A stretch of 64,000 nt of DNA from a virus (IMGVR_UViG_3300031555_004294:128001-192000), one strand, 5' to 3'; shown: positions 1,951 through 49,299, counted from the first letter of the stretch. Program-made: numbers and translations. Notes: generated by a model from the sequence alone, not told the origin.

Positions 1951-2005
1951 TTTACTGCACTCCTTTCCATTATAAATTTTTGTACAATTTTAATCACACC
2001 TTTAT

Positions 2006-2017
2006 CTATATATAATT
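2006..2017 (+). promoter_or_regulatory. early-type promoter motif
   Basis: CTATATATAATT upstream of the 2062-8871 gene run. Confidence 0.5.
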
Positions 2018-2061
2018 GTTTTGAAAATATTTTACTAACACAAGAAAGGAAGAAAGTAAAA

Positions 2062-2562
2062 ATGGAGAAAAAAGTTATTTGGTCTAATTGTGATTTAAAA
2101 CTTGATGATTGGATTGATTGTTTTAAAGAAACAAACCCTGATTTAACTGAAGAAGAGTACTTACAAATGATGTATGAAGCTAACGATGGTAACTTAGATT
2201 TTGTAAGAGATGATTTAGATAAGGTAGTAGCTGATAGTATTTTAGTTATTGCAGATATAGGTAGATGGAATGGTCGAGTTATGGGATACAAAGTTATAGA
2301 AAGTGGAAATCTTGCTGATTGTTTATATTCTGACTGTGATATGGCTGAATGGTATATTGATGAAGAAAATGAGTTTAAAGGACATTTTGTTCATCATGAT
2401 GGTCGTAATAATTGTTACTACAGAATCTGGAAAGATGACATAGAAGATGAAAACAAAGAAGAACTGTTAAATTTGATTTACAATGGTAAAGCAACTCAAG
2501 AAGATATAGACAATTTAACTGAAAAATTAGGTGACACAATTAGTAAAATTTATGGTTGGTGA
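2062..2562 (+). CDS. hypothetical acidic protein
   Basis: ORF with RBS. Confidence 0.75.
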   Translation: MEKKVIWSNCDLKLDDWIDCFKETNPDLTEEEYLQMMYEANDGNLDFVRDDLDKVVADSILVIADIGRWNGRVMGYKVIESGNLADCLYSDCDMAEWYIDEENEFKGHFVHHDGRNNCYYRIWKDDIEDENKEELLNLIYNGKATQEDIDNLTEKLGDTISKIYGW

Positions 2563-2569
2563 TTTGAAA

Positions 2570-2920
2570 ATGACAAATGATGAAATTGTAAAACACTTTA
2601 TATTTGATTTGGAAATGGAAAGATTTAATAGAACTACAAAAACAATCTTTCTATCATTTTCAAATGTACTTGGATTTAAACTTGTAAAAGAAAGAACTTA
2701 TAAAATTGATGTTGATTTAGTAAGGAAATTTCTAAAAGTTGTTTTAAAAGCTGGATTTACATTTCCTCTAAATGCTAAAACATATGTTTCTGATGATAGA
2801 GAAGAAATAATCTTGGATTTAGAACTCAAAAAAATTTATATTTTGAGAGAAGGAACTATTTGTTGTAAAAATTACATTCCAGAATATGTAGAGGAGTACA
2901 AATTAGAAAATGACGAATGA
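2570..2920 (+). CDS. MTNEE family paralog 1
   Basis: Start moved to MTNDEIVKHFIFDL; ends IPEYVEEY. Confidence 0.8.
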   Translation: MTNDEIVKHFIFDLEMERFNRTTKTIFLSFSNVLGFKLVKERTYKIDVDLVRKFLKVVLKAGFTFPLNAKTYVSDDREEIILDLELKKIYILREGTICCKNYIPEYVEEYKLENDE

Positions 2921-3257
2921 AGAAATTAGAAAAAAATTTTTGTTTGATTTAACAATGGGAAGATTTGAAAGAATTATTACTGACCAAATTATATTTTATG
3001 GACCATATCTTGAAACTTTCCAATTGGCAATGGTGTTAATTGACCTTGGATTTGAAAATGCAGAGTATGAAGATAAACTTAAGCGAAATAATTTCATACT
3101 TCTGGATAGAACAGAAATTCGTATATTTACTGAAACTAAAAGTTTTCACACTTATTGGATACCTAGCAGTATTGGTAATAGCAATCCTATAAATCAACAA
3201 ATACCAGATTATGTAAAAAAATATAAAATAACGGATAGTAGAGTTCTAATTACCTAA
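2910..3257 (+). CDS. MTNEE family paralog 2
   Basis: MTNEEIRKKFLFDL...IPDYVKKY. Confidence 0.85.
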   Translation: MTNEEIRKKFLFDLTMGRFERIITDQIIFYGPYLETFQLAMVLIDLGFENAEYEDKLKRNNFILLDRTEIRIFTETKSFHTYWIPSSIGNSNPINQQIPDYVKKYKITDSRVLIT

Positions 3258-3276
3258 AGGAGTAAGAATTTAGAAA

Positions 3277-3600
3277 ATGACGAATGAAGAAATTAGAAAG
3301 AGATTTGAATTTGACTTAAAAATGGGAAGATTTAAAGTTTCTCCAGATTCAGTACATTTAGGTTTGTTAACATCTAAAAATCAAGATGCATGTAATAGGC
3401 TGTTTAAGTTATTGACTGATATAGGAAAAACACAAATTGGACCTGGTTTTGAAGAAGAATTTGATGGTGTTTATATCTTTTCCTCATTCAAAAATAGATT
3501 TCAGTTGTTAAAATATAATGAAAAGATATTAGCTGAAGGTAAAGCTATTTTTAATGAAATTCCAGATTATATCAAGGAGTACAAAATAAATGACGAATGA
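3277..3600 (+). CDS. MTNEE family paralog 3
   Basis: MTNEEIRKRFEFDL...IPDYIKEY. Confidence 0.85.
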   Translation: MTNEEIRKRFEFDLKMGRFKVSPDSVHLGLLTSKNQDACNRLFKLLTDIGKTQIGPGFEEEFDGVYIFSSFKNRFQLLKYNEKILAEGKAIFNEIPDYIKEYKINDE

Positions 3601-3910
3601 AGAAATTAGAAAAAGGTTTCAATTTGATTTGGAAGTAGGAGTCTTTAAGAAAATTGAATTTGAAACTTATTTTTTAATAAAACGAAAAGACCTATGTTTT
3701 ATCGATTTCTTAATTGATATAGGTTACTTTTTTACATTTTTACCAAGTGCAGATGCATTAATAAATCAATCTATTAGGGAAACAAATGAAGTTTGTATGG
3801 TGCTAAATGAAGCTACTAAAGAAATAAACCCAACACTATGGAGATTTAAAGAATACTTTAATGATGTACCAGATTATATCAAGGAGTACAAAATAAAAAA
3901 TGACGAATGA
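3590..3910 (+). CDS. MTNEE family paralog 4
   Basis: conserved termini, overlapping start/stop. Confidence 0.85.
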   Translation: MTNEEIRKRFQFDLEVGVFKKIEFETYFLIKRKDLCFIDFLIDIGYFFTFLPSADALINQSIRETNEVCMVLNEATKEINPTLWRFKEYFNDVPDYIKEYKIKNDE

Positions 3911-4229
3911 GAATGAAGAAAAAAGATTCCAATTTGATTTGGATCTGGAAATAAAGTACAAAACTAAGTATACTAAGAACCACAAAATAGTATATTTCGT
4001 TTTGGACGATTCTGATTCTTATCCTTTCTTAATAGAATTAAGAAATGTTTTAAAAAGGTTAGGATACAAAAAGAAAGGTGGCTATGTGAAAAATAGCAAC
4101 GCTTTAAAGTTATATCTTAAGACAAGAAGATATGAAGAAGTGTATTCTGCACCAGATTTTAAGTCCATAACTTCACCTAAGAATCGATTTCCAGATTTTA
4201 TTAAGGAGCGTGTTTTAAATGACGAATGA
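3900..4229 (+). CDS. MTNEE family paralog 5
   Basis: conserved termini. Confidence 0.85.
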   Translation: MTNENEEKRFQFDLDLEIKYKTKYTKNHKIVYFVLDDSDSYPFLIELRNVLKRLGYKKKGGYVKNSNALKLYLKTRRYEEVYSAPDFKSITSPKNRFPDFIKERVLNDE

Positions 4230-4533
4230 AGAAATTAGAAAAAGATTTGAATTCGATACAGAATTTTTATTTAAAAATAGCAACTTAGATGAAATGTACT
4301 TTGTTTGTCCTATAAATAAAATAGGAAAATTTTTATATTTTTTAGAACATGATCTTGGATATAAAAGGAAAAATGCCATTTTTCCAAGGGGTTACAGAAT
4401 GAATGTAATTTATTTGGCAGTTTGTACAAAGTCTAAGTGTCTTATTAGATTTGAAGATTACGTAGATGGCTCTATTAGACTAAATCCAGTACCAGAGTAT
4501 ATTAAGGAGTATGAAATAAACTATGACGAATGA
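4219..4533 (+). CDS. MTNEE family paralog 6
   Basis: conserved termini. Confidence 0.85.
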   Translation: MTNEEIRKRFEFDTEFLFKNSNLDEMYFVCPINKIGKFLYFLEHDLGYKRKNAIFPRGYRMNVIYLAVCTKSKCLIRFEDYVDGSIRLNPVPEYIKEYEINYDE

Positions 4534-4852
4534 AGAAATCAGAAAAAGATTTAAATTTGACATTGAAATGGGTGTATTTGAAATAAACAAAAGTATACTT
4601 TGTTACACATTCAATGATAGCACGGAAAGTTGTCTTAAATTAAGAAAACTACTACTTGATATTGGAATGAAAGAATTGGAAAGATTTAGAAAACATAAAG
4701 ATGATGAAATTTGTACGGTACTGTTCTATGTTATAAATCCTGAAAGTTCTGATGATTCATGGAATAATACATTTGATACTTTTCAATATCGTGATGATGT
4801 CTATAGAAATAACAAAATTCCAGATTACGTCAAGGAGTATGTTATAGAATGA
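4523..4852 (+). CDS. MTNEE family paralog 7
   Basis: conserved termini. Confidence 0.85.
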   Translation: MTNEEIRKRFKFDIEMGVFEINKSILCYTFNDSTESCLKLRKLLLDIGMKELERFRKHKDDEICTVLFYVINPESSDDSWNNTFDTFQYRDDVYRNNKIPDYVKEYVIE

Positions 4853-5163
4853 CAAATGAAGAAATTAGAAAGAGATTTAAATTTGACTTAGAAATAGGAA
4901 TGTTCAAAAAAGACTATCCATTTGAAAGTATTACATTTCATGGGTATTATAAAGAAACTGCAAAATTAATAAAATTGCTTATTGATAGTGGCTATGAAGG
5001 GATAATTGCTAATAACTTAGAAAATAAGCATAATGGAGAACTTTATAGAACACAAATAGATGTTTCTAATAAAAAAATTTTAGCAATATATTGGACGTTG
5101 ACAGAAAATTATAATCTTCTTCCAGATTATATCAAGGAGTATGAAATAAACTATGACGAATGA
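4849..5163 (+). CDS. MTNEE family paralog 8
   Basis: conserved termini. Confidence 0.85.
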   Translation: MTNEEIRKRFKFDLEIGMFKKDYPFESITFHGYYKETAKLIKLLIDSGYEGIIANNLENKHNGELYRTQIDVSNKKILAIYWTLTENYNLLPDYIKEYEINYDE

Positions 5164-5467
5164 AGAAATCAGAAAAAGATTTGAATTTGATATGAACATT
5201 GGTCTATTTTTACTAGACTCCAGTAATTTTATTACTGAAAAAACTTTGTTTAAATGCAGTTGGAATAGAAAACTTGCAACAAAGTTCTTAGAAATGCTTA
5301 GTGATAGTGGTTATAGTTTATCTCGGTATTACAAAGATTCAATCATCACCCTCTATGATAATCCTGTTATCGCACTAGATCAGATTAGCAAAATACATTC
5401 AATTATTGAGGATTTTGATGGAACTATATTGAACGAAATACCAGACTATATCAAGGAGTACAAATAG
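5153..5467 (+). CDS. MTNEE family paralog 9
   Basis: conserved termini. Confidence 0.85.
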   Translation: MTNEEIRKRFEFDMNIGLFLLDSSNFITEKTLFKCSWNRKLATKFLEMLSDSGYSLSRYYKDSIITLYDNPVIALDQISKIHSIIEDFDGTILNEIPDYIKEYK

Positions 5468-5758
5468 ATGACGAATGAAGAAATTAGAAAAAGATTTGAG
5501 TTTGATAGCAAATTTAGTTTTAAGACTTACCCAAATTTTGCTTTCTTTAAAATTGACACTAAAACACCTATTACTAATAGATTTCTTGCAGTTTTACATG
5601 ACAATGGTTATACAGGAAAAGGTACTGTCAATAATACACATTTGTACTTAGTAATTGATTTTAGAGACAAAAAATTCTTAGGTATTGTAAGTGTTGATAA
5701 TGAAAATGTACTTATATACAATCAGATTCCAGATTATATCAGGGAATATAAAATATGA
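5468..5758 (+). CDS. MTNEE family paralog 10
   Basis: conserved termini. Confidence 0.85.
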   Translation: MTNEEIRKRFEFDSKFSFKTYPNFAFFKIDTKTPITNRFLAVLHDNGYTGKGTVNNTHLYLVIDFRDKKFLGIVSVDNENVLIYNQIPDYIREYKI

Positions 5759-6105
5759 CGAATGAAGAAATTGAAAGAAAATTTGAGTTTGAATTAAGTA
5801 TAGGTCTCTTTAAGCATTCTATTAGATATCCAGATGAAATTCTTTTCAAAAGGGGTAGTAGAACCTACAAACTTCTTAAGTTGCTTACTAACATAGGTTT
5901 TGTTAGTGATGAAGATTCACTTTTAACTTTATGTAAGGAATCATATATAAAGGAACTTCTTGAAAGTAGAAATGGAGTTTATCTAGAAATAAGCATGAAG
6001 GACAGAATTGTAGATATAGATACAAATTGGAATTACTTGAATCCGATAACTCAGACTACGGATTTTAACGAAATACCAAGGTATGTAAAGGATTATCAAA
6101 TATGA
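5755..6105 (+). CDS. MTNEE family paralog 11
   Basis: conserved termini. Confidence 0.85.
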   Translation: MTNEEIERKFEFELSIGLFKHSIRYPDEILFKRGSRTYKLLKLLTNIGFVSDEDSLLTLCKESYIKELLESRNGVYLEISMKDRIVDIDTNWNYLNPITQTTDFNEIPRYVKDYQI

Positions 6106-6509
6106 CGAATGAAGAAATTAGAAAAAGATTTGAGTTTGACTTAAAGATGGGTTTATTTAAAAATAGGAGTCGTTTTGCTGGAGGAGAATTTAGATTCTGT
6201 GGCTACCTTGAAGATTCTATTAAATTTTTAAATTTACTTATCGATAGTGGTTATTTGTGCTCAATGTCAGAAGATACGTTTAAAAACATGATAAGAACAT
6301 ACAATTCCGCTGATACTGAAAAACTGTGTAAAATAGATATAGTCCCTTCAGATAAAATAGTTTTATCAGTCAATAGGAGTTTTGAAAAAGAAGATAATCC
6401 ATTTCCAGATTACATTAAGGAATACAAAGTATCGTTAAATAACTTACAAAGGAAAGTAATTAGATTTAAAAACCTGACAAAAGAGAAGAAATACAATTAT
6501 GACGAATGA
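6102..6509 (+). CDS. MTNEE family paralog 12
   Basis: conserved termini. Confidence 0.85.
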   Translation: MTNEEIRKRFEFDLKMGLFKNRSRFAGGEFRFCGYLEDSIKFLNLLIDSGYLCSMSEDTFKNMIRTYNSADTEKLCKIDIVPSDKIVLSVNRSFEKEDNPFPDYIKEYKVSLNNLQRKVIRFKNLTKEKKYNYDE

Positions 6510-6894
6510 AGAAATTAAAAAAAGATTTGAATTTGACTTAAAGATAGGTTTATTCAGGGAAGATATACTAGGATACGGTAAAAATAATGTAGTTACGTTT
6601 TATGATTACTATCGTAATTCTACTAAACTTCTGAAATTACTTATTGACTGTGGGTTTCTTTTTAGTAAACCTCCCACTCAATTAAATTTACCAGATCCAG
6701 ATATAGTAGAATGTACAACTGCTAAAGATCTTCTGTTTAAAATTACTATAAAACCAACTGATAAGTTAATCCTTGATACTCACTGGATTCTTAGACAACC
6801 ATTTAGTAGTAATCCACTACCAGAGTTTGTAAAAGATTATGAAATTCCAAAAAATTTTAATTTTGAAACTCTAATTCAAAAAAGTTCAGACTAA
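6499..6894 (+). CDS. MTNEE family paralog 13
   Basis: conserved termini. Confidence 0.85.
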   Translation: MTNEEIKKRFEFDLKIGLFREDILGYGKNNVVTFYDYYRNSTKLLKLLIDCGFLFSKPPTQLNLPDPDIVECTTAKDLLFKITIKPTDKLILDTHWILRQPFSSNPLPEFVKDYEIPKNFNFETLIQKSSD

Positions 6895-6936: not shown

Positions 6937-8871
6937 ATGTCAATAGATCTCAGTAAAAGTACTTTTGTCAAAAATTATAGAGATGACATGCTAAGTGCAT
7001 TGAAACTATTGAAACCAGATATGACTGATGATGAACTGTTAGCAGTCATAGATGATCAGATAGCAAACAATGCAAAGTTAAATGATGAAACATGTAATGT
7101 TGCTATTAGAAACAACTATACCAAGGAAGAAAGTAGTCATACTCTATTAGAAATTTTGGATTTTTATGAAAACAAAAATCCCATTATGACTGGCTATGGA
7201 GTTATGTTTAAGCAACATGACAAAGCTATCAATTTAAATGCGGATTTTGTTAGCTGGTTGATGAGCGAGAGAAAAGTAGCTAAGAAAGCACAATTTGCTG
7301 CATTAAATGAGGGAGACTATATTAAAGAGTCTTTCTATGAAATGCTGCAGAAGACTTTTAAATTGTTGAACAACTCTTATTATGGAGCTACTGGAGAAAA
7401 GAACAGTCAGTTCTATAATCCAGTTATACCACCAAGTGTAACTTTCATGGGGTATGCTATTATTACCACTTCAATTTTAGCATTTGAAGCATTTTTAAGT
7501 AACAACATTCACTATGACAACTTTAACGACTTGTGTGTCTATGTTAAAAATTGCTTAAAGAGTACTAGAAATGATTTGAAAATTCTCAAAGTTCTTGATT
7601 CTGAAAATGTAAAGAAGAAACAAGATTTGTTAGATAACTTAAAGAGTTTGATGACTGTTTCTTTGACTAAAGATGAGAAGTCTAAGCTAAAGACTCTGAT
7701 TAATGGACTTTCCAAAGAGCAAGTTAATCGAGTTTACTATAAGAACAACTTGTATGAGTTCTTGAATAATGCAACTCAGAAGAAGTATCTAGAAAATATC
7801 TTGCAGTATGATATCATCAATCCGAATGAAGTTAATGATGACATTAAGGAAAACTTAGATAAACTTTGGGAACTATTAGAAGAATTTGTAGTTTATGACT
7901 TCCAGTATTGGAATAGAGCTGATAGAGCATTCAATATGGAAAGAGAAACTATATTGGTGGTAGATACTGACTCAAATTTCTTGTCGTTGAATCCATATAT
8001 AAAATGGGTAGAAAAGTCTATACAGCTTCCAGAATCAGACAAATTGTTCTATTCAATTCCTAACTCAGCTATCTTATTCTTGTCCAAGTTTATTCAGAAA
8101 GAACTAAACAGATTGACTGAGAATTGTAATGTTTCTGAAGTTAAGCAACCTATTATCAATATGAAGAGCGAATTTTTGTATTCTAGAGTCATGCTTAGCC
8201 GAAACAAGAAACAGTACTGCGGATTATTAGAGTTGCAGGAGGGTAATATCAAAAGGAAGGTAGACATGAAGGGTATGTCAATTAAGAAGGCAAATGTCAA
8301 TAATCGTACCAGACAAGTGTTTACCAACATGATTGAAAATAAGATACTGAAATCTGATAACATCAACATTGCAGAAATTTTAGGTATCTTTAAAGCATTT
8401 GAAGATGAAATTTATAATTCACTTCATAATGGTGAGATAACTTTCTTAACACCAGGTAAGTGTAATGAACTTGATGCTTACAAGGATCCATATAAAGTAG
8501 CTTCTGCTAGAGGTACTATGATTTGGAATCTGCTTAATCCAGATAATACTATTCAGACACCAGCTAAGGTAAATATGCTAAAGCTGAACATCAATTCCAT
8601 TGAAGATCTTGAACCAATCTATGAAACTGAGATGTTTGAGAAAATTCAAAAGTTAATTTTTGATGATGAAAGATTGGCACATTATGGAATGGCTACAATA
8701 AGTTTGCCTAAATCTGTAAATAAGATACCTGATTGGTTAATTCCATTTATCAACTATGATGACATTATTGACGACAATATTCGTGTTGGTAATATCTTAC
8801 TTGAAAGTTTAGGGATAAAGCTAATGCAATTTAACAATAAGGAATTCTATAGTACTTTCATCAGTTTTTAA
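6937..8871 (+). CDS. family B DNA polymerase, catalytic part of a split (phiKZ-type) enzyme
   Basis: KLLNNSYYGATG (motif B), VVDTDS (motif C), KKQY; no exonuclease or motif A seen. Confidence 0.85.
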   Translation: MSIDLSKSTFVKNYRDDMLSALKLLKPDMTDDELLAVIDDQIANNAKLNDETCNVAIRNNYTKEESSHTLLEILDFYENKNPIMTGYGVMFKQHDKAINLNADFVSWLMSERKVAKKAQFAALNEGDYIKESFYEMLQKTFKLLNNSYYGATGEKNSQFYNPVIPPSVTFMGYAIITTSILAFEAFLSNNIHYDNFNDLCVYVKNCLKSTRNDLKILKVLDSENVKKKQDLLDNLKSLMTVSLTKDEKSKLKTLINGLSKEQVNRVYYKNNLYEFLNNATQKKYLENILQYDIINPNEVNDDIKENLDKLWELLEEFVVYDFQYWNRADRAFNMERETILVVDTDSNFLSLNPYIKWVEKSIQLPESDKLFYSIPNSAILFLSKFIQKELNRLTENCNVSEVKQPIINMKSEFLYSRVMLSRNKKQYCGLLELQEGNIKRKVDMKGMSIKKANVNNRTRQVFTNMIENKILKSDNINIAEILGIFKAFEDEIYNSLHNGEITFLTPGKCNELDAYKDPYKVASARGTMIWNLLNPDNTIQTPAKVNMLKLNINSIEDLEPIYETEMFEKIQKLIFDDERLAHYGMATISLPKSVNKIPDWLIPFINYDDIIDDNIRVGNILLESLGIKLMQFNNKEFYSTFISF

Positions 8872-9878: not shown

Positions 9879-9910
9879 TGAGTCTGTATTTGTAACAGAA
9901 TACAGACTCA
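9879..9910 (+). terminator. stem-loop, probable terminator
   Basis: TGAGTCTGTATT/AATACAGACTCA. Confidence 0.6.
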
Positions 9911-10782: not shown

Positions 10783-11953
10783 TTGAAAATAGATATTTGT
10801 AATCTGGACAAATTTATAAAGGTTAACAACATACAAGAAGTTACTAACCCTATACGTTTTGATGCAGATTGGTACCCAACTGATAATGGTCTTTTATCAT
10901 ATAGAATTTTTGGTCAAGTTGGTAGTTATGATAGACGTACTTTATTTGGTTACATCGACCTAAAAGGACACTTTTTACACCCATTATTTTATTTGAGACT
11001 CATAAAAATGAATCGTAATTTTGCTAGAGTCATTGATGGTAGTGGCTATTTTAGAATTAACGAAAAAGGTGAGTTAGTTGCTGATAATGAGAATGGAAAT
11101 ACTGGAATAGCTTGGCTTTATAAGAATTTCAAAAATCTTAAGTTTAAAAAATCGGGTTCAGGAGAGCGAGACAGGACTATAGACCTTCTAACTAAACTTG
11201 ATCTTGATGAAATCTTTGTCAGCAAGTGGCTTGTAATTCCTGCCTTTTATCGAGATTCTAATATACAAAAACTCGATCATGGAAGAGTTTCAGAAGATGA
11301 AATCAACCCTATGTATGCAAATTTGATTTCTCTGGCAAGTTCTAAATCAGATTTCGACTTTATGGGATATATTACGGAATCTAGAATTCAAAAACAGCTT
11401 TTAGAAATCTATGATTACTTGACTGGATATATCAAGGGTAAGACTGGACTTCTCAAGAATAGTTTGCTCGGCAAGACTGTGGACTATTCAACTCGCGGTG
11501 TTATCTCAGCAGGTAGAGTCAATTCTAATACATCAGATGAACAATTGGTAAAGTTTACTTATACTGGCATTCCTTTATCTCATTTGTGTAACTTATTCTA
11601 TCCTTTCTTCCAATACGAGATAGCTAGTTTTGCAGAAGAAACCTTTGCATCAGTTAATGAAATTAGGGGTTCTGATGGAAATTATTATCCATTGGTAAAT
11701 CCTATGAGTAAATTTACAACTGAAAAGATAAAAGGGATGATGAACTTATATATTAAGTCACCTGATAATAGACTTGATCCAATCATGGTTCCAATTAGGC
11801 TTAAGAATGGAAGTGTTAAAGAAGTTCCTTTAAATCTCTTCCAAGATGATTTAAAGAGACACTTTACTTTACTGGACTTGATATACATTGTTGCAACTAG
11901 AGTTTGTCTTGACAAACATGTGTATGTAACTCGATTTCCGATTGAAAACTATC
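10783..11953 (+). CDS. rpoC: RNA polymerase beta' N-terminal subunit (probably virion RNAP), exon 1
   Basis: GLLSYRIFG, FGYIDL, VIPAFYR, GKTGLLKNSLLGKTVDYSTRGVIS, TRFP; joins exon 2 in frame (ENY-Q-SIYP), 510 aa total. Confidence 0.92.
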
Positions 11954-12453
11954 GTGTGTCACGTTGATCTATAACTTGAAAGAATCAAGGAAATGATCGA
12001 TATAAGTATACTTATGTTAACTGTAAGTTTGATTGGTGGAATGAAATACGGCAATCAGTATGAAACACCAACATTAATACTCCTACATGCATTAAAAAAT
12101 AGCTAGAATTATTTAATGTGTGAAGCTAGGTGAAGACGTATTCATAGTAATGCGGATGGTTCTATAATATGGTGAGGAACACGAATTTTCTAACGTCCAA
12201 TGTTTTGGGATTAGTAGTATGATAGTGGCGAAAATCCTATTGAATGATGCTTCAATTGAAAATATTGGGAACAGAAAACACCTAAGTTATAGAAATACTA
12301 GAATTTACGGAACGTGAGAAGTTTCTATAAAAAGAAAATAGCTGATACTTTTTATAGAAATGGCAGCAGCCTGTAGTAGCGATGAAGCTTTTGTAATGAA
12401 AGTGGAGTGAAGGGGCATAGTCAATTTTTTGATTGAACTTTTTCTAACGATCA

Positions 12454-12465
12454 AACAATTTATTA
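12454..12465 (+). promoter_or_regulatory. late-type promoter inside intron domain IV
   Basis: AACAATTTATTA followed by AAAGGAG RBS and ATG 12493. Confidence 0.6.
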
Positions 12466-12492
12466 AATACTTTTACAAAGGAGATTAATAAA

Positions 12493-13416
12493 ATGGGTAG
12501 AAAAAGTAAATCACATGAAGATTTTGTTAAAGATGTTATGAATATTTTAGGACCAGAATATCAAGTGCTGGGAAAATATATCAAATGTTCTGAAAAAATA
12601 AAAATGAAACATTTAAAATGTGGATTAGAATATGAAACTGAACCTAGAACTGTAATGCATGGATCAGGATGTCCAATATGCAATACCGATTTTCATATGT
12701 CACATGATGAATTCGTTTCAAAAGTAAATAAAGAGGGAGATAACGAATATGAAGTCCTAACTCCTTATATCAATACAAAAACAAAAGTAACGCTAAAACA
12801 TAAAGTGTGTAATGAAATTTATGAAGTTGCACCTAGAAATTTCTTTCAAGGTAAAAGATGTCCAAAATGTACTAAAGTAAAACGTGTGACAAATGAAGAA
12901 TTTGATCGACGTCTGTTAAACATTTATGGAAATGAATGGACTAGAGTTTCAGAGTTTATGGCAATAAATAAGGAAATTCTAGTTAAACACGAAAATTGTG
13001 GGAACATAATTAAGAATACTCCAAAAGTTATTTTAAGTCAAAGATTTGGATGTAAATATTGTAAGATGACTAGCGGAGAATTTAGAATTAAATCTGTTTT
13101 AGAAAACTTAGATATAAAATTTACCCCACAAAAGAAGTTTGATGATTGTAAAGATCTAGGTTACTTATTTTTTGACTTTTATTTTTGTATTGACAATAAA
13201 GAGTATATCATAGAATATGATGGACGACAACATTTTCTTCCTATTTTTGGTCATAATGATAAAGAACGACAAGAACGTTTAGAATTTACGCAAAAACATG
13301 ATGAGATGAAAAATTTATATTGCGAAAACCATAATATAAATTTGCTGCGTATATCATATGATACTCCCTATCAGAATATTCAATCAATAATTGAAAACTT
13401 CATAAAGAAAAATTGA
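12493..13416 (+). CDS. intron-encoded putative homing endonuclease (3 zinc-ribbon repeats + Vsr/DUF559-like PD-(D/E)xK domain)
   Basis: HxxC...CPxC repeats; FDFY...IEYDGRQH...DEMKN...LLRISY; no RT/YADD motif. Confidence 0.8.
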   Translation: MGRKSKSHEDFVKDVMNILGPEYQVLGKYIKCSEKIKMKHLKCGLEYETEPRTVMHGSGCPICNTDFHMSHDEFVSKVNKEGDNEYEVLTPYINTKTKVTLKHKVCNEIYEVAPRNFFQGKRCPKCTKVKRVTNEEFDRRLLNIYGNEWTRVSEFMAINKEILVKHENCGNIIKNTPKVILSQRFGCKYCKMTSGEFRIKSVLENLDIKFTPQKKFDDCKDLGYLFFDFYFCIDNKEYIIEYDGRQHFLPIFGHNDKERQERLEFTQKHDEMKNLYCENHNINLLRISYDTPYQNIQSIIENFIKKN

Positions 13417-13503
13417 TGGAACGCTGTGTGAGGTGAAAGTCTCACGCACAGTGTGAAGTGGGGGAAAAAATAGAGATAACTTCAAAGTTTTACCTATCAC
13501 TAT

Positions 13504-13865
13504 AATCAATCTATCCAAGCCGTATAAAAATAATGACTACTTACAAGACTCAAAAAATAACAATTGCTAACAAGTATTATGACAATTATCCTGTAGTTAC
13601 TACAGATTTTGATAGTCCTAGTTATGATGAAAACATGAACTATATCGATACCATAATTCCCCATAATACGATGTTGGAAGCCTTGGGTGCAGACTTTGAC
13701 GGAGACACGGTTTCTTTAAGATCTGTCTATTCACAAGAAGCAAACTTAGAATGTGAGAAACTAATAAACTCACCTAAGTATCTTTTAGATGTAACAGGAA
13801 AAACTACTAGAGTTTTGCGTAACGAAGGTATTCAAACTCTTTATACTTTAACAAGAGAAGGTTAA
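13504..13865 (+). CDS. rpoC: RNA polymerase beta' N-terminal subunit, exon 2 (catalytic motif)
   Basis: LGADFDGDT Mg-binding motif; frame continues from exon 1. Confidence 0.92.
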
Positions 13866-26321: not shown

Positions 26322-26939
26322 TTGAAAGAGCTTACTAAAAAACAACTATTTGATTTACAGATCAACTATACAAAATATATTATCGAATATGGCGATAAAT
26401 GGTGGGAAGAAAAAGAAAATTGGATAAGCATTATAACTTGGGATAACTTATCCGAAGATTTCATAAGGGAATTTCAAGATTATTTAGACTTTTGCGTCAT
26501 TCCTGCAACTCAAGTTTTATCCGAAGATTTCATAAGGGAATTTCAAGATAAACTTGATTGGAATTCAGTATCAATAAACCAAGATCTATCCGAAGATTTC
26601 ATAAGGGAATTTCAAGATAAAATTTATTGGATTGGAATATCTGGCCATAAAAGAGATTTATCAGAAGATTTTATAGAAGAATTCCAAGATAAAGTTAGCT
26701 GGAGTTTGATCTCAATATATCAGAAATTATCGTGTGATTTTATAAGAAAGTTTCAAGACAAAGTTTACTGGACTTCAATTTTTAATCATCAAGAAAATTT
26801 ATCTGATGATTTCATATTGGAATTCCAAGATAAAATAAGTTGGAATAACTTATGTTGGAACAATCCATCCAAATGTAATATTTTTAAAAAATGGAGGAAG
26901 TTAATAGATGATAGCACTAACCAAACAACAGGAGTTTGA
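26322..26939 (+). CDS. tryptophan-repeat protein (LTKxQxFDL family)
   Basis: 23-aa LSEDFIREFQDKxxW repeats. Confidence 0.85.
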   Translation: MKELTKKQLFDLQINYTKYIIEYGDKWWEEKENWISIITWDNLSEDFIREFQDYLDFCVIPATQVLSEDFIREFQDKLDWNSVSINQDLSEDFIREFQDKIYWIGISGHKRDLSEDFIEEFQDKVSWSLISIYQKLSCDFIRKFQDKVYWTSIFNHQENLSDDFILEFQDKISWNNLCWNNPSKCNIFKKWRKLIDDSTNQTTGV

Positions 26940-27591
26940 TCTCTTGTTCAAATATTCAAACTTAGGATTTACGAATGAAAATTTGCATAGCGAAAAGAAA
27001 TGGGCAGAACTCATTCATCATCCTTCCAGAATATATGTAACACACAATAAGGAATTCTTACTTGAGTTCAAAGATGTTCTAGATATTGAAAATTTATCTG
27101 GTGGTATTCCAAATTACTTTATGAATGACTTTGAATTTTTTGATGAAATTTCCAAGTATATTGATTTTGGTTGCTTTCCTATCCGAATTCAAGATTACAG
27201 TACTGACAATGTATCTGTAGCTGCTCTTAGACGTTATAAGGAGACACTTAATTGGAATCGAGTGTACATATCTACACCATCAGAAGCTTATACTTCAGTA
27301 GAATTTTTAGAAGAGTTCAAAGATGTTCTATGTTGGGACAATCTTGATTATTCTTACATCTCTGAAGAAACTATAGAGCTTTTCAAGAATAAAGTATCTT
27401 GGAAGAAAGTTTGTATGAAGACTGATTTATCAGAGGACTTTATTAGACGAAACAAAAGAAAAATAGCTTGGAAGACACTTTGTAAACAACGTGATAAAAC
27501 TTTGAATTTCTCTGTTGAATTTATGAAGGAATTTGACGATAAAATTCACTGGGAAGTTTATGTAAAAGGACGTAAAACTTTATTTACTTAA
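26908..27591 (+). CDS. tryptophan-repeat protein (LTKxQxFDL family)
   Basis: LTKQQEFDL; degenerate repeats. Confidence 0.8.
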   Translation: MIALTKQQEFDLLFKYSNLGFTNENLHSEKKWAELIHHPSRIYVTHNKEFLLEFKDVLDIENLSGGIPNYFMNDFEFFDEISKYIDFGCFPIRIQDYSTDNVSVAALRRYKETLNWNRVYISTPSEAYTSVEFLEEFKDVLCWDNLDYSYISEETIELFKNKVSWKKVCMKTDLSEDFIRRNKRKIAWKTLCKQRDKTLNFSVEFMKEFDDKIHWEVYVKGRKTLFT

Positions 27592-27608
27592 AAGGAGATA
27601 CAAAAATT

Positions 27609-28730
27609 ATGGGAAAAGCAGTACTTATTGTAGGTGGAACATTTGACAGATTTGGTGGTAAGAAGTCTGGTCTCATTGAAAAGATCTATCAGTCAATCGA
27701 TTACAAAAAGTTTGACTATGATATTGTAGCTTGTCGTAATGGCGGCAACGTCGAAGATCTTAATGAAGAACTTGAATTTACAAAGGAATTTGATATTGTA
27801 CTTTGGATGCCGAATGTATCAAATGATGAAGTAAAGATTAGAAATGTGAAGGAAGTGAATCCTAAGACAATTTTGATCTCTTCAAAAAGAAATGACAATA
27901 ACAAGTACAACTTTGCAGAACTTATTTCAAGAGCACTTGAACTCAAATCTAACCTTACAATCGAGTTTAGCAAAGTTGAGGAAAATAATTGTTTCAACAT
28001 GAGAGTTTTTGATCCGCTTGGAAACCAATTCTACAATGGAACTGATGTTGAAACGATGGTTAACAAACTCTTTAAGAGAGCTGGAGAATTAGCAGAATTC
28101 ACAAGAAAACCTACCATTCCAGTTAACAGTAACGATAGAATTCCTGAAGTACCAGATGAAGAAGAATTTTTTGCATTTGCAAGAAATTGTTCTGATATTT
28201 TCCACAATCTAATTAATCCTGCTGCAGGTACTACACGTTTCTTAGGAAATATGAGTTTCCGTTGTCAAAATGGATTTCCTTCTTTCCGTGGAGAAGATGG
28301 ACTTATCTTTGTAAGTCGTAGAAATGTAGATAAGAGACAGATTACAAAAGAATCATTTGTTCCTACTTATCTCGATGAAGATGAAAATGTTAGGTACTAT
28401 GGAGATGCAAAGCCTTCAGTTGATACACCAGTTCAACTCAGACTCTATAAGAAATTCCCTCAGATGAACTATATGATTCATGCTCATTGTTATGCTAATA
28501 CTATTTTACTAACAGAACATCCAGTTCCTTGTGGTGCAATTGAAGAGGTAGATGAAATTGAATCTGTGGTTAAAAATTCAATGGATGCTGAATTTATTGC
28601 AATCAATTTGATTGGTCATGGTTGTATTCTTATGACAAAAGATGTAAAATATTTTACAAGACTCATGAAATATAAAAAGTATAAGGATAATTGTTTTGTA
28701 AAGAGAAATATACCAGAAGTTTTCTTTTAA
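27609..28730 (+). CDS. class II aldolase/adducin-like domain protein
   Basis: GNMSFR, KPSVDT, HAH, GHG. Confidence 0.7.
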   Translation: MGKAVLIVGGTFDRFGGKKSGLIEKIYQSIDYKKFDYDIVACRNGGNVEDLNEELEFTKEFDIVLWMPNVSNDEVKIRNVKEVNPKTILISSKRNDNNKYNFAELISRALELKSNLTIEFSKVEENNCFNMRVFDPLGNQFYNGTDVETMVNKLFKRAGELAEFTRKPTIPVNSNDRIPEVPDEEEFFAFARNCSDIFHNLINPAAGTTRFLGNMSFRCQNGFPSFRGEDGLIFVSRRNVDKRQITKESFVPTYLDEDENVRYYGDAKPSVDTPVQLRLYKKFPQMNYMIHAHCYANTILLTEHPVPCGAIEEVDEIESVVKNSMDAEFIAINLIGHGCILMTKDVKYFTRLMKYKKYKDNCFVKRNIPEVFF

Positions 28731-28745
28731 AAAGGAATTTTGAAA

Positions 28746-29231
28746 ATGAAAAAGCTAACAAAGAAACAAATATTCGATCTTCAACTTAACTATACATGGA
28801 TAACAAAACTGTGTGGTGATGAGTGGTGGAATGATTGGCAGAAATGGAGAGCTGTATCCTATCTTAACTTATCTGATGATTTCATAAGAGAGTTCAAAGA
28901 TAACTTAAGTTGGTTTGAGCTTACAAGAAACCACCAATTTACTCTTGAAACAGTAAGAGAATTCCAAGATTATATACATTGGGATACTCTGTCAAGAATG
29001 AGAATATCGGAAGATATCATAAGAGAATTTCAAGATAAATTGAACTGGCAATTTATTTCTACCTACCAAGATTTATCAGAAAATTTCATAATGGAGTTCA
29101 AAGATAAAGTTCAATGGGATGAGATTTATGTCAATCAAAATTGTTCTAAAGAATTCTGGCAAAAGACAAGTGAATACTGGATGCCATATTTTGAACATCT
29201 TAAACACAGACGAAAGGACGAATTAAGATGA
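28746..29231 (+). CDS. tryptophan-repeat protein
   Basis: LTKKQIFDL; repeats. Confidence 0.85.
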   Translation: MKKLTKKQIFDLQLNYTWITKLCGDEWWNDWQKWRAVSYLNLSDDFIREFKDNLSWFELTRNHQFTLETVREFQDYIHWDTLSRMRISEDIIREFQDKLNWQFISTYQDLSENFIMEFKDKVQWDEIYVNQNCSKEFWQKTSEYWMPYFEHLKHRRKDELR

Positions 29232-29755
29232 AGACTAAACTAACCAAACAACAGATATTTGATTTGCAGTTCAAATATGATATAAAGGCTACACCATCTA
29301 TAATGAAAAAGAAAAATTGGTGGAATCATATAGAATATTGGAGGTGGATATTTGATACTAAAAGTTCTTCTATTCCAGAAGAATTTTTTCGTATGTATAT
29401 TAATGTTATAGATGAATTAGGAGGTTATTATTGGGAGATTATATCACGACAAGCAATATTTTCTGAAGACTTTATAAGAGAATTCCAAGATAAAGTTTAT
29501 TGGGAGGGGGTTTCATCTATTCCAAATTTATCTGAAGACTTTATAAGAGAATTCCAAGATAAAGTTGATTGGTTTGAAATTTCTTCCACTCAAAATTTAT
29601 CTGAAGACTTTATAAGAGAATTCCAAGATAAAGTTTATTGGTGGAAAATTTTTGATTGTCAGACTTTATCAGATGAATTTATTGAAGAGTTTAAAGACAA
29701 ATATATTGACGAGGACGACGAATTTGATGATTTTTTAGAAGATGATGACTACTAA
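29228..29755 (+). CDS. tryptophan-repeat protein
   Basis: LTKQQIFDL; three DNA-identical 36-bp repeat cores, 69-bp period. Confidence 0.85.
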   Translation: MKTKLTKQQIFDLQFKYDIKATPSIMKKKNWWNHIEYWRWIFDTKSSSIPEEFFRMYINVIDELGGYYWEIISRQAIFSEDFIREFQDKVYWEGVSSIPNLSEDFIREFQDKVDWFEISSTQNLSEDFIREFQDKVYWWKIFDCQTLSDEFIEEFKDKYIDEDDEFDDFLEDDDY

Positions 29756-45215: not shown

Positions 45216-45569
45216 TTATAAAAATCCTTGTATTTCTTCTACTTCATATAGATAATCTGGAAATGGATTAATTGTAGATTGGTCTTTCGAATTGGTTATC
45301 CTACAGAAGTAGTAATACTTTTTATCTAACTGTATGGAAATATGAGAATAAATATTTTTAGCAGTGGCACTAAAATTCCATTGGTAACCTAACTTTTGTA
45401 AAAAGTTCACTAACAATAATGCTTCTTTTTTAGATAACACTCTAAAAATGCAAACTGTAGATGAAATACACGCTGGGAAATCACCTATGCTGTAATCTTC
45501 ATCTACAACTTTTATAATTCCAGATTCCATTTCAAAGTTCATTCTTTTTTTAGCTTCATCTATTGTCAT
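45216..45569 (-). CDS. orphan member of MTNEE family
   Basis: MTIDEAKKRMNFEMESG...NPFPDYLYE. Confidence 0.7.
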   Translation of the reverse strand: MTIDEAKKRMNFEMESGIIKVVDEDYSIGDFPACISSTVCIFRVLSKKEALLLVNFLQKLGYQWNFSATAKNIYSHISIQLDKKYYYFCRITNSKDQSTINPFPDYLYEVEEIQGFL

Positions 45570-45578
45570 TTTTGTTCC

Positions 45579-45860
45579 TCATTTGGTAATTCCAACAAGT
45601 TCTTCAAATTGTTGTCTATATTTGAGAACTAGTTGTTTTTTACCTTCAGCTAATTCTTCTCTAAAATCATTTAGTGAAGTCTTATATTTGGGGTCGTAAG
45701 GTATAATTTTTATAGGTTCAAAAGCCATACCTTGAAAACCTGCAACTTTAATACGTCCATCTTTTAGAAATTCCTCAATTTCTCCACAAAGATATCCAAT
45801 ATCATCATCATACTTCCAAATACCAAGTAAGCGTTGTTCCATTTTAATTATCTCCTTCAA
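45579..45860 (-). CDS. hypothetical protein
   Basis: ORF in operon. Confidence 0.65.
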   Translation of the reverse strand: MKEIIKMEQRLLGIWKYDDDIGYLCGEIEEFLKDGRIKVAGFQGMAFEPIKIIPYDPKYKTSLNDFREELAEGKKQLVLKYRQQFEELVGITK

Positions 45861-46729
45861 TCATCCATCAATTTATAAAGCTCACTTGCTCTATCATTTT
45901 GATCTGCGTTAATGTAATAATCGAACATAAATTCTCTTTGTGCTTTGGTCAGTCTTCTTATAGTATCTGAAGTTAAAACTGGTATACCTTGAGAAGGAGA
46001 ATGAACTAACACCCAACCTTTATCTACTAAGAAGTCAGCAGCAGCATTAACTACAGGTCTTTTTCTAGCTTTACACCAAGCTTCAAATTCATCTTTGTAG
46101 TGACTTAAATCTGCAGCAGCAACCTCATCATAACGTCCTCGTTCTAAGATAGAATTGTAAGGCCAAATCTGATGACCACCAAAATCAACTTCATAGAACT
46201 TAGCTTCTGGACTTAGCCAACCATATTCAACACCTTTTACTCTAGCGTCAATATAGTCTTGAACTAATCTAGAAGTTCCTTTGATTGGGGAATACTCTAC
46301 TGTATTAAGTCTGTATCTACTATATCTGTCATATTCTCCATTTTCAATCTTTTCTACAAGCTCACAGTATTTGTCATTCATTTCGCTTAGTTCTTCTCTA
46401 GTTTCCTTATACTTCTTAGCTAGCTTACTATAAGCAGTGAAAATATTAGTCTCGTTTAATGTTTCTTCGCTATCTAAGAATGCTAGACAAAATGTTCCAT
46501 CTCCACTGTTACCTCTTAACTCCGCTCTACCTAAAAGTATATCTTGTGCATACTTTTGTAAAGTTGCTTTAGTCTCATCTGTACCACACATGCAAGATAA
46601 AAGTAATTCTTCAACTTGACTGTATGGTTTAAACTCATCAAAGAACCATTCTTTAGCCAACTTAGTTATAAACTCACCCTGTACTGAAAAGCCTAGTGTT
46701 CCAATTACTTCTTCTTTTTCGTTTTCCAT
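45857..46729 (-). CDS. hypothetical protein
   Basis: ORF with GGGAGG RBS. Confidence 0.7.
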   Translation of the reverse strand: MENEKEEVIGTLGFSVQGEFITKLAKEWFFDEFKPYSQVEELLLSCMCGTDETKATLQKYAQDILLGRAELRGNSGDGTFCLAFLDSEETLNETNIFTAYSKLAKKYKETREELSEMNDKYCELVEKIENGEYDRYSRYRLNTVEYSPIKGTSRLVQDYIDARVKGVEYGWLSPEAKFYEVDFGGHQIWPYNSILERGRYDEVAAADLSHYKDEFEAWCKARKRPVVNAAADFLVDKGWVLVHSPSQGIPVLTSDTIRRLTKAQREFMFDYYINADQNDRASELYKLMDD

Positions 46730-47100
46730 TTTAATCGAACAACCTCCCCTTTTTTAGAATATGCTAATCCAAGATAACATGACCAATCAAATTTGTTTTT
46801 AGCTAAGTAAACTTCCTCACCAAATGTTAAGTCTTTCGTGTAGAATACCATAAGATCATCATTGTATATAGAATGAACACAGTCAATAATAAACTCTAGT
46901 CCAGTTACTTCACTGATTTTATTGACAAACTTAATCACATCTTCTTTACAAGTTGCCATTTCATTACATCTAACCGACCAATCTGTTTGCACTTCTAAAT
47001 TGTAATCAAACCCAAAAGTATAACCAGCATCTTCTACAATATTTCTTAGAAGCTGTTCAGGACTTAACATTTCCAAATCAAATTTAAGCTTCTTGTTCAT
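46705..47100 (-). CDS. KKLxFDL family paralog
   Basis: MNKKLKFDLEM...AGY...YSK. Confidence 0.8.
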   Translation of the reverse strand: MNKKLKFDLEMLSPEQLLRNIVEDAGYTFGFDYNLEVQTDWSVRCNEMATCKEDVIKFVNKISEVTGLEFIIDCVHSIYNDDLMVFYTKDLTFGEEVYLAKNKFDWSCYLGLAYSKKGEVVRLKWKTKKKK

Positions 47101-47471
47101 AATTTTCCTGAGAGTCCTTCTTTAGAATATACTAGTTCAAAATGTTTACTTAGTCTAGCATTTCCATCTGGAACAATAATTCCACCAAGTTTATAATCAT
47201 CTGAGTGGTAAGTATATATGACAGGAAGTCCTTCTATACGATCATCTTTAATGATGGTAAAGTCCTTTCCAGTTACATTAGATACTGCATCAATAAAGGC
47301 ATCAATATCGTCCTCACAGTTTGCAGTTTCTTTAGTAGATACACCAAAGTCGCCGTAACATGAAAAGGATGGTTCAGCATATGTATAACCAGCCTCTTCT
47401 ATAATGTCAATCAATACTTGACAGTCTTCTATGATTGACATTTCCAAATCAAATTTAAGCTTCTTGTTCAA
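47097..47471 (-). CDS. KKLxFDL family paralog
   Basis: MNKKLKFDLEM. Confidence 0.8.
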   Translation of the reverse strand: MNKKLKFDLEMSIIEDCQVLIDIIEEAGYTYAEPSFSCYGDFGVSTKETANCEDDIDAFIDAVSNVTGKDFTIIKDDRIEGLPVIYTYHSDDYKLGGIIVPDGNARLSKHFELVYSKEGLSGKL

Positions 47472-47812
47472 AACATTTTACCATCCTTAGAATACATAAA
47501 ACTTAGATACTTACTGGTATCTTTACAGTTAATCGTTCCAAAAATTTTGTTATTGCTAGTCCTAAATGTTATAACACTACCATCAGGTGACATCGTCATG
47601 ATCATATACCCACCAATTACTTTTCTAAGTGAATCTAGGAATTTATAGCCATCATTAATTGAACGTGGTACCTGTGTGCTCAAAACCCAATATTTAGTAT
47701 TGTTAGGATAACTAATTGTTTCCTTATGACAATACCCAGCTTTTTCTAAAATACCTTTCAAAACTTCTTTTGTATCTGACATTTCAAGGTCAAATTCAAG
47801 TTTTCTATCCAT
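47468..47812 (-). CDS. KKLxFDL family paralog
   Basis: MDRKLEFDLEM. Confidence 0.8.
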   Translation of the reverse strand: MDRKLEFDLEMSDTKEVLKGILEKAGYCHKETISYPNNTKYWVLSTQVPRSINDGYKFLDSLRKVIGGYMIMTMSPDGSVITFRTSNNKIFGTINCKDTSKYLSFMYSKDGKMF

Positions 47813-47823
47813 CTTCTATTCCT

Positions 47824-48336
47824 CTACTTTATTCTTACTAGATTTCCTCTACTATCACCCACATAAATATTATTGGTGCTTGTATCTACTATTATCTCAC
47901 CAGGAGTAGGTTTAAAAGAAGCAATATTCCAATTACTTACTCCAGAACTTAATTTAATTCTTGGCCCATTATAAGAAGATGTGTTAATTATCTGAATGAA
48001 CGCTGTATCTCTCAAACCTAGTTCTAGTTTTTTATTTGTATCTGAACGTATTTCAACTACAAATCTATTAGCAATTTTACTGGTAGTATATCTTTTTAAA
48101 TCTTTATCCCATTTAAACTTTACTCCAGTTACTTTGCTAATTCTTCTTTTAAACATCCATGTTGAAAGTTTAGAAGCTTTTAGCTTTCTGATCTGTATCC
48201 AGTAATATTTTCCGTCATCTTCTTTATAGATACTTGCATGATGATATTTTGTAGTGTTAACTATGTTTTCTAGTGCTTGTTCAGGAGTTAAGAATTGTAG
48301 GTCAAACTCAAGTTTCTTTCGTTTTTTATTATCCAT
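47824..48336 (-). CDS. KKLxFDL family paralog
   Basis: start moved to MDNKKRKKLEFDL. Confidence 0.75.
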   Translation of the reverse strand: MDNKKRKKLEFDLQFLTPEQALENIVNTTKYHHASIYKEDDGKYYWIQIRKLKASKLSTWMFKRRISKVTGVKFKWDKDLKRYTTSKIANRFVVEIRSDTNKKLELGLRDTAFIQIINTSSYNGPRIKLSSGVSNWNIASFKPTPGEIIVDTSTNNIYVGDSRGNLVRIK

Positions 48337-48664
48337 CGGTAAATAACTCCCCATGCTCATCATAAACTAATTCAAAATTACATCCTATGCAAAGATTTCC
48401 GCCAAATTTATGGTCTTCCGACCAATAATAAAATAAACCATCTTGAAAATCTATATTACACTCTTTACCAAGTGCATAAGCAATACGTTGAATAAAAACA
48501 TCAATTTGCTCTTTACAAGTTGCAAGTTCTTGGGTGTGTAAACCACAAGTAATATCTCCAACATAAACATCACAACGATATGTATAACCAGCTTCTTGTA
48601 TAGTGTTGATTAAGGTTTGTTTTGGTCCAAGCATCTTTAGGTCAAATTCAAGTTTCTTGTTCAT
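48329..48664 (-). CDS. KKLxFDL family paralog
   Basis: MNKKLEFDLKM. Confidence 0.8.
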   Translation of the reverse strand: MNKKLEFDLKMLGPKQTLINTIQEAGYTYRCDVYVGDITCGLHTQELATCKEQIDVFIQRIAYALGKECNIDFQDGLFYYWSEDHKFGGNLCIGCNFELVYDEHGELFTDG

Positions 48665-48700
48665 TATCTTATTTTTTCCATTCCGTAAAATTAAAAAAGT

Positions 48701-48738
48701 AAAAGGAAATACTCTAATGAAAGAGTATTTCCTTTTTT
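48701..48738. terminator. terminator
   Basis: AAAAGGAAATACTCT/AGAGTATTTCCTTTT. Confidence 0.7.
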
Positions 48739-48763
48739 ATTTGTAACTAGCATTTTAAATTTT

Positions 48764-49168
48764 TTAAATTTGCTTGGAAGAAGTAGTCTTAGTAGAACTT
48801 GCTTTCTTTTTTGCAATTGGAATCTTCTTGCTTTCAGGTTTCTTAAACTTTACTTCGATGTTAAGAATACCATTTTCAGCAGTCCATTCAATACGATCAA
48901 TCTGCTCTTCATAAATTCTAAAACGAGAATTTACAGAATAGTTGTTTCCATACTTTTCATCATTGTAGCTGCCCTGAATTACTAAGTAGGCAACATTATT
49001 TTCGTACTGAATTGAAATATCAATATTTTCACTTGGAATACCAACACAGTTATGAATGATTACAACACTATCTTCAGTTCTGTGCTGCTGATAAGGTTTG
49101 TTGTCTAAAACACTACGATTAAAACGATAAGCTGGTGTATCAAAATCCAGCATCCAATTAAGACTCAT
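48764..49168 (-). CDS. small heat-shock protein (Hsp20/alpha-crystallin)
   Basis: GIPSENIDI, LVIQG, AENGILNI, KKIPI. Confidence 0.75.
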   Translation of the reverse strand: MSLNWMLDFDTPAYRFNRSVLDNKPYQQHRTEDSVVIIHNCVGIPSENIDISIQYENNVAYLVIQGSYNDEKYGNNYSVNSRFRIYEEQIDRIEWTAENGILNIEVKFKKPESKKIPIAKKKASSTKTTSSKQI

Positions 49169-49299
49169 GATAAAATACCTCCGTGGAATGAAATAAAATA
49201 AAATTTTTGAAAAAATAAAATTAAAAGAGACTATTTAGCTAGTATCATAGTTGTCTTACAAATTATTTGTTAGCAGTACTTTTAAGATTTTAAAATCTT

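Follow-up and report, generated by a model that had tools for sequence, protein, structure and literature searches.

A tandem family of small paralogous genes with homogenised junctions upstream of the DNA polymerase gene of an AR9/PBS1-like gut jumbo phage

We analyzed a 64,000-nucleotide stretch of viral DNA (bases 128001–192000 of the 299,070-bp virus record IMGVR_UViG_3300031555_004294, hereafter the window), whose source genome is an uncultivated AR9/PBS1-like jumbo phage from the gut. Between positions 2570 and 6894, the window carries 13 head-to-tail paralogous open reading frames (ORFs) on the + strand, encoding proteins of 96–135 aa that can be aligned over their whole length. An earlier note on this DNA had described a 13-gene array with constant ends and a repeat at each junction, and this description was borne out by ORF calls, alignment, and direct-repeat families. 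The array units are diverged paralogs of one previously undescribed small single-domain family (about 105 aa). Their ends are homogenised as DNA within this one array, beyond protein constraint, and the locus is shared with related phages that differ in copy number and content. We consider it probable that the array represents a multigene family, lineage-specific and amplified in tandem, that undergoes birth and death with recombination confined to the gene junctions, and that its products are diversified early binders.

The repeated units of about 320 bp described in the earlier note are real, but their lengths are not uniform and range from 291 to 408 bp (Table 1). The typical protein begins with MTNEEIRKRFxFDL and ends with NxIPDYIKEY, and M1, T2, N3, F10, F12, one Gly, and one Pro are invariant in 13/13 copies. 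A profile built from the 13 copies scored each of them with E values of 1e-22 to 5e-35 and also found a solitary, diverged 14th member (W14), whose neighbours are other small genes with a K-x-x-x-F-D-L N-terminus. At the 3′ edge of the array, the tail of W13 (E-I-P-K-N-F-N-F-E-T-L, window 6835–6894) resembles the family N-terminus E-E-I-R-K-R-F-E-F-D-L, and could be what is left of a truncated further copy (p about 0.03, uncorrected). Relics of deleted copies were sought in the tails of W02, W12, and W13, and nothing significant was found apart from this weak hint in W13.

Table 1. Positions of the array genes, junction repeats, and operon features, counted from the first base of the window
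Feature	Position	Strand	Remarks
Early-promoter-like box	2004..2023	+	ATCTATATATAAT-N6-G; divergent junction upstream of the operon
ORF166, first operon gene	2062..2562	+	166 aa, no assigned family; missing from the slot in two related lineages
Array gene W01	2570..2920	+	116 aa; most diverged N-terminus, MTNDEIVKHF
Array gene W02	2910..3257	+	115 aa; sole copy with a gap after it (19 nt, free-standing AAGGAG inside)
Array gene W03	3277..3600	+	107 aa
Array gene W04	3590..3910	+	106 aa
Array gene W05	3900..4229	+	109 aa, basic; ortholog C11 in the 15-copy array of L029
Array gene W06	4219..4533	+	104 aa
W06/W07 junction	4504..4552	+	49 nt identical to 5134–5182: ribosome-binding site, stop, start, first 10 codons
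Array gene W07	4523..4852	+	109 aa
Array gene W08	4849..5163	+	104 aa; structure predicted
W08/W09 junction	5134..5182	+	Second copy of the 49-nt identical stretch
Array gene W09	5153..5467	+	104 aa
Array gene W10	5468..5758	+	96 aa
Array gene W11	5755..6105	+	116 aa; ortholog C15 in L029; unusual I-E-R-K-F kept in both
Array gene W12	6102..6509	+	135 aa; 25-residue tail past the C-terminal motif
Array gene W13	6499..6894	+	131 aa; tail EIPKNFNFETL
PolB gene	6937..8871	+	42 nt past the array, no terminator between
First terminator-like hairpin after operon start	9879..9910	+	None before
W14, solitary diverged family member	45216..45569	-	117 aa; found with the 13-copy profile

Direct-repeat families are present at every array junction. 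Adjacent genes overlap by 11 nt (ATGACGAATGA) at seven junctions and by 4 nt (ATGA) at three, one pair abuts, and one is separated by the 19-nt gap. An AGGAG motif lies 9–14 nt 5′ of the next ATG at 9/12 junctions; at eight of these nine, the Lys and Glu codons of the C-terminal motif contain it, and at W02/W03 it is free-standing. The start ATGACGAATGA contains TGA in both other frames, and therefore an upstream gene stops at the junction in any frame. The N-D-E tails of seven array proteins are the start of the next gene in another reading frame. The 49-bp identity between two junctions that had been reported for this array was verified; this run was longer than in 2000/2000 nulls with shuffled alignment columns (null median 29, maximum 47), and the identical pair brackets the two-gene block W07–W08.

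To define the family, a 30-member profile was searched against 1.84 billion representative proteins, with clusters taken at 50% identity. This search yielded 208 clusters of metagenomic proteins at E<=1e-3 (a lower bound) and 132 at E<=1e-10. Among the 150 listed clusters, nearly all proteins were 100–130 aa long, with a few up to about 186 aa, and the end motifs were present. Over 139 members, conserved positions were seen in the N-terminal helix (K8 0.97, F10 0.97, F12 0.99, D13 0.92, L14 0.88, and F19 0.96), the core (F30 0.94, L44 0.93, G48 0.76, and K75 0.82), and the C-terminus (N89 0.88, P92 1.00, and Y94 0.99; fractions conserved). The family had no meaningful match in Pfam, PHROGs, NCBIfam, PADLOC, or PDB sequences, and megablast and tblastn searches of about 50,000 cultured phage records gave no match to the array or to family members. 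AlphaFold models of W08 (predicted local distance difference test, pLDDT, 88.7; predicted template modelling score, pTM, 0.81) and W05 (pLDDT 87.0, pTM 0.78) had the same topology of helix, hairpin, helix, hairpin, and short C-terminal helix. The fold prediction suggested in the earlier note thus gave confident and similar models for two members. The same note had called the cores barely alignable, which holds for the DNA, where the cores are at background identity, but not for the protein, which shares fold-determining positions (F30, L44, G48, and K75 of W08). In six members from other phages (P0031, P0055, P0084, P0090, P0106, and P0109), we observed an extra amphipathic C-terminal tail of the W-L-M-K-K-L-K-R-D-S-Y-L-I type, which occurs in no array copy of the window.

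The constancy of the ends has a component at the protein level. The end motifs are retained, with different codons, in distant phages (at least 139 relatives). In addition, K-x-x-x-F-[DE]-[LIMVF] occurs within the first 30 residues of 33 ORFs genome-wide, a 22-fold enrichment over other positions, and these ORFs come from three or more families whose bodies are unrelated (e.g., window 45216–51159 and 26908–29755). Because the motif is kept with different codons and is also found on other families, the 5′ constant region is a functional peptide and not primarily a recombination site. Judged by this conservation, the constant N-terminal helix and the C-terminal N-x-x-P-x-Y are protein-level functional elements. 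These observations bear on a possible, though doubtful, alternative in which the array would be an adaptor or effector library, with various target-binding surfaces plugged into a common phage or host machine by a shared docking handle. The handle would have two parts, the N-terminal K-x-x-x-F-D-L helix, which some 33 genes from three or more unrelated families carry, and the C-terminal N-x-x-P-x-Y. Through recombination limited to the junctions, the phage would be able to exchange members and adjust their dosage. If this were true, jumbo phages would possess a modular F-box-like or leader-like targeting system.

Several other genes carrying the N-terminal motif were recorded. One group (L-T-K-K-Q-I-F-D-L-x-F-K-Y) runs into tandem L-S-E-D-F-I-R-E-F-x-D-K-V-D-W repeats, and another (N-K-K-L-x-F-D-L-E-M-L-x-P-E-Q ... 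A-G-Y) resembles the array family minus its first hairpin. Outside the window, a small ORF at G000:C1:45322-45700 has K-R-F-E-F-D-L-T-F-K-Y near its start, L-P-E-Y-F near its end, and a 22-nt exact match to array genes; it may be a hybrid or a distant family member. The only matches of >=15 nt that link the array to other parts of the genome are coding ones of the K-R-F-E-F-D-L type.

We then weighed the birth-and-death family with junction-confined recombination against plain duplication and divergence, in which the ends would be kept constant by constraints on protein, ribosome-binding site (RBS), and translational coupling, with no special recombination. The strong conservation of the end motifs as protein over the 139 members speaks for such constraint, the constancy of the AAG-GAG codons is due to the RBS, and AT-rich codon bias makes identical codons common (53–54% expected). 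However, codon identity at sites with identical amino acids exceeded expectation at the N-terminus (711/953 observed vs. 506 expected) and the C-terminus (343/500 vs. 272), compared with 404/823 vs. 374 in the core. Thr2 is encoded by ACG, which makes up 4% of Thr codons genome-wide, in 11/13 copies, and the invariant Pro by CCA in 13/13 copies (35% genome-wide), a combination confined to this array. ACG is absent in the arrays of both related lineages, which speaks against any conserved role of the nucleotides themselves and in favour of homogenisation specific to the array. In the core, the codons of the invariant Gly (GGA 6, GGT 5, GGC 1, and GGG 1) and of a conserved Leu (TTA 5, CTT 5, TTG 1, and CTA 1) are mixed; the duplicates are therefore old, and synonymous sites are saturated even between paralogs.

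The distribution of DNA identity along the genes agrees with the codon counts. In 30-nt bins, the ends are 93–100% identical and the cores 37–63%, the level of shuffled AT-rich sequence, except for one bin of 80% in W12/W13. In another phage, the first 52 nt of the pair B01/B02 are identical and the cores dissimilar, so that the 49- and 52-nt identical runs both adjoin cores at background identity. W05 starts with the array-typical ATG ACG AAT of its neighbours, whereas its ortholog C11 starts with ATG ATT GAT. These findings make divergence under constraint alone an unlikely account and point to junction-limited gene conversion or unequal crossover as the putative source of end homogeneity. 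The earlier note had proposed recombination between the junction repeats, and the excess of codon identity, the 49-nt run, and the background level of the cores support this proposal; synonymous sites in the junctions are more conserved than protein constraint predicts.

Comparison of array content and order across related genomes, which the earlier note had recommended, revealed variable copy number and content at the same locus. The slot upstream of the gene for the family-B DNA polymerase (PolB) holds 13, 9, and 15 copies in three lineages with PolB 77–78% identical, and the family is absent from this slot in relatives whose PolB is 51%, 45%, or 38% identical. A metagenome scan with PolB as the query recovered only distant relatives (51% and 38% identity), in which the family was not present. 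When only the cores of the 13- and 15-copy arrays were compared, two clear ortholog pairs emerged, W05~C11 (core 55% identical, E 1e-26) and W11~C15 (core 40%, E 1.5e-8), both in the same relative order, together with a weaker pair, A06~C10. The third lineage has no clear ortholog either. The divergence of W05 and C11 is about that of non-array neighbours (53–60% identity), and therefore most other members have been replaced or have diverged far faster. From these sequence comparisons, array turnover follows what we read as a birth-and-death pattern. Candidate strain variants (P0151-P0153) were rejected, as they proved to be alternative gene calls on the same DNA (TGA=W, or an upstream start).

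In a related phage of 320 kb (L011, IMGVR_UViG_3300029305_004950), we observed a second array of 8–9 members elsewhere in the genome (7308–10327, about 70.0–73.0 kb). It begins directly after an early-promoter-like box, ATCTATATATTCT, at a divergent junction, and its first two genes are exactly alike over their first 52 nt.

The variation in copy number and content among lineages could also be expected of an integrase-free mobile cassette array, in which junction repeats would actively insert, delete, shuffle, and circularise genes on short time scales. Such an array would fit the restriction of DNA identity to the junctions, the 49-nt pair flanking W07–W08, and the stops in both other frames of ATGACGAATGA, which end any upstream gene at the junction. 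The present array shares with integron cassette arrays a single promoter ahead of a row of small genes that lack their own, and an element repeated at every junction. Unlike integron cassettes, however, the units are mutually homologous paralogs and not foreign genes, and the junction repeat is coding sequence plus RBS. No recurrent attC-like inverted repeat was found at the junctions, which also lack conserved RNA structure (the consensus fold of 10 junctions was -1.9 kcal/mol, with no covariation), and an Rfam search inside the array gave no match. No recombinase or IntI integrase was present among the flanking ORFs that were scanned with Pfam and PHROGs. Further, distant phages keep the end motifs at the protein level with other codons, and the two ortholog pairs retain their order. 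Other contigs with these proteins, from at least five samples, are 99.98–100% identical with the same gene order, and they gave no sign of the shuffling or circular units that had been envisaged. We thus regard active cassette mobility as quite improbable. Of the cassette-like array proposed in the earlier note, homologous recombination between junction repeats fits the data, but the units are neither unrelated cassettes nor integron-like, and the recombination is best explained, as far as these comparisons indicate, as unequal crossover or gene conversion of an ordinary kind among tandem paralogs.

The array lies at the head of an operon whose layout is known from AR9. PolB (Pfam PF20286, phrog_2927) is divergent, with best matches among cultured phages to PBS1 and AR9 at 38% identity. 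The synteny of a non-virion RNA polymerase (nvRNAP) subunit, PolB, and a split RNA polymerase (RNAP) subunit agrees with that of AR9, and the upstream RNA polymerase subunit lies on the opposite strand. The operon shares its orientation and flanking genes with that of AR9 and PBS1, and in both an AT-rich box of early type stands at the divergent junction. The AR9 PolB gene (g152) comes directly after an early promoter that was mapped by experiment, and the AR9 early promoter consensus is AAATATATATTAT-(6N)-G (PMC5312081). The box in the window agrees with this consensus at 10/13 positions, and the corresponding spot in two related lineages reads AAATATATATAAT, then TGTTT. We infer that this box functions as an early promoter. 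Whereas PolB follows the promoter directly in AR9, 14 extra genes (ORF166 and the 13 array genes) intervene here. A single early transcript would span ORF166, the array, PolB, and a 280-aa ORF, as the layout of genes and hairpins suggests. The decamer AATATATATT occurs 15 times genome-wide, 14 of them intergenic and mostly as AAATATATATTCT (e.g., G000 55285, 67955, 151946, and 280795); it is probably the phage's own early-promoter core, near the AR9 consensus.

Further downstream, we observed that the phrog_2986 RNA polymerase subunit gene (window 10783–13865) is split into two pieces (10783–11967 and 13533–13865), both of which match one 457-aa gene in a related phage. The insert is a group II intron by Rfam (RF02004 at 12016–12166 and RF00029 at 13419–13503), and the intron ORF (12493–13416) encodes an HNH-type homing endonuclease, not a reverse transcriptase.

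The position of the array also bears on whether its products are proteins packaged in the virion and injected, with a shared N-terminal targeting peptide and variable bodies acting as anti-restriction effectors. T4-type internal proteins combine a conserved capsid targeting sequence with diverse bodies and act as anti-restriction effectors (PMC3012670). Like them, the array proteins are small and join a short, constant N-terminus to bodies of great diversity, here hypervariable, and the recurrence of K-x-x-x-F-D-L at the N-terminus of 33 ORFs from at least three families would suit a targeting peptide. The array differs in that its 13 copies lie in a PolB operon behind an early-type box and not in a head-gene region, whereas the virion proteins of AR9 are late. 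In addition, the N-terminal helix is modelled with high confidence as an integral part of the fold (pLDDT 97 for residues 1–10 of W08), and no conserved protease-type cleavage site was found, position 15 being acidic in 6/13 copies only. The C-terminus is conserved as well, which a cleaved leader leaves unexplained. We therefore judge a packaged, injected set very unlikely.

The predicted fold itself raised one more candidate. Foldseek, run on PDB and BFVD, returned nothing at E<=0.001, and the best Z values of a wide VIA-align search, 4.0 and 3.3, were below the tool's noise range. The W08 homodimer prediction (x2, 139-row alignment) returned a "no answer" verdict with a score of 0.00, which counts neither way. 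A minimal LAGLIDADG-like DNA-binding family of the homing-endonuclease fold, with the first helix as the dimer interface and variable beta-hairpins reading different DNA, is suggested by the modelled order of helix, two strands, helix, two strands, and helix, by LAGLIDADG or WhiA domains in 6 of the top 24 VIA-align rows for W08 (Z 2.3–3.1), and by the recurrence of I-DmoI (Z 2.7) and WhiA (Z 2.5) for W05, but we consider it highly improbable, as no Z value reaches 4.1 and the noise level stated for the tool is far higher, 30 members gave no match to Pfam LAGLIDADG_1/2/3 at E<=10, the helix has bulky Phe where LAGLIDADG has Gly/Ala, and the acid of F-D-L-x-h-G is not at the canonical pre-Gly position. 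Isoelectric points (pI) range from 4.5 to 9.7, with most copies in this array acidic (pI 4.8–5.9), which does not fit a uniform DNA binder but agrees with binding surfaces that vary between copies. The LAGLIDADG/WhiA likeness is kept as a weak lead only.

Returning to the tandemly amplified family with junction-confined recombination, we envisage the following course. The family occurs in a subclade of AR9/PBS1-like gut jumbo phages, and its genes fill the slot between the early-type promoter and PolB. Expression of the array genes is most likely early and from a single transcript, with translation coupled from gene to gene through the RBS in the Lys-Glu-Tyr codons and the stop/start overlaps. 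The N-terminal helix (K8, F10, F12, D13, L14, and F19) and the C-terminal N-x-x-P-x-Y would together make up a common structural clasp or a docking surface, and each copy would owe its own binding specificity to its variable hairpins and loops. Unequal crossover and short-tract gene conversion, confined to roughly 60–90 bp at the junctions, would homogenise the ends within an array and make lineages differ in copy number and content. The most likely role of the products, in these putative terms, is that of an early set of binders for host takeover or counter-defence.

Several points weigh against this reconstruction. Part of the nucleotide identity of the ends could stem from selection on the region of translation initiation. 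The near-identical contigs all belong to the same strain, and recent recombination was not seen directly. The meeting of the two ends as one surface is suggested by helix periodicity and conservation. The promoter box departs from the AR9 consensus at 3/13 positions, and the AR9 virion RNA polymerase (vRNAP) is reported to be sensitive to consensus deviations (PMC5312081).

Tandem arrays of this general kind are known from other viruses. Vaccinia K3L arrays expand, contract, and homogenise by recombination as "genomic accordions" (PMC6115191), and accordion-type tandem arrays have been stated for large phages (PMC13359090). The present array is similar in having head-to-tail paralogs at one locus, lineage-variable copy number, homogenisation by recombination, and a presumed setting of host-virus conflict. 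It differs in that the copies are old and at background identity except for about 60–90 bp per junction, so that only the ends are homogenised, and in that each unit is a complete, translationally coupled gene. Moreover, the family was undescribed, and its link to defence is drawn by inference only. The array thus combines the features of a family in concerted evolution, that is, tandem homologs, copy number and content that vary at one locus, and DNA homogenisation, here of the ends only.

These findings define a sizeable protein family (at least 208 clusters) without annotation or structural relative. Its members are kept in 9–15 copies at the head of the DNA-polymerase operon in three gut jumbo-phage lineages, with nearly all members replaced between two of them. 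The array offers a clear case in nature of concerted evolution that stays within gene junctions, where a single 60–90-bp repeat holds the RBS, stop, start, and terminal protein motifs, and it is linked to an N-terminal motif found genome-wide. Early gene sets with fast turnover are the usual home of phage counter-defence and host-takeover factors, and the members of this family would be concrete candidates for testing such roles.

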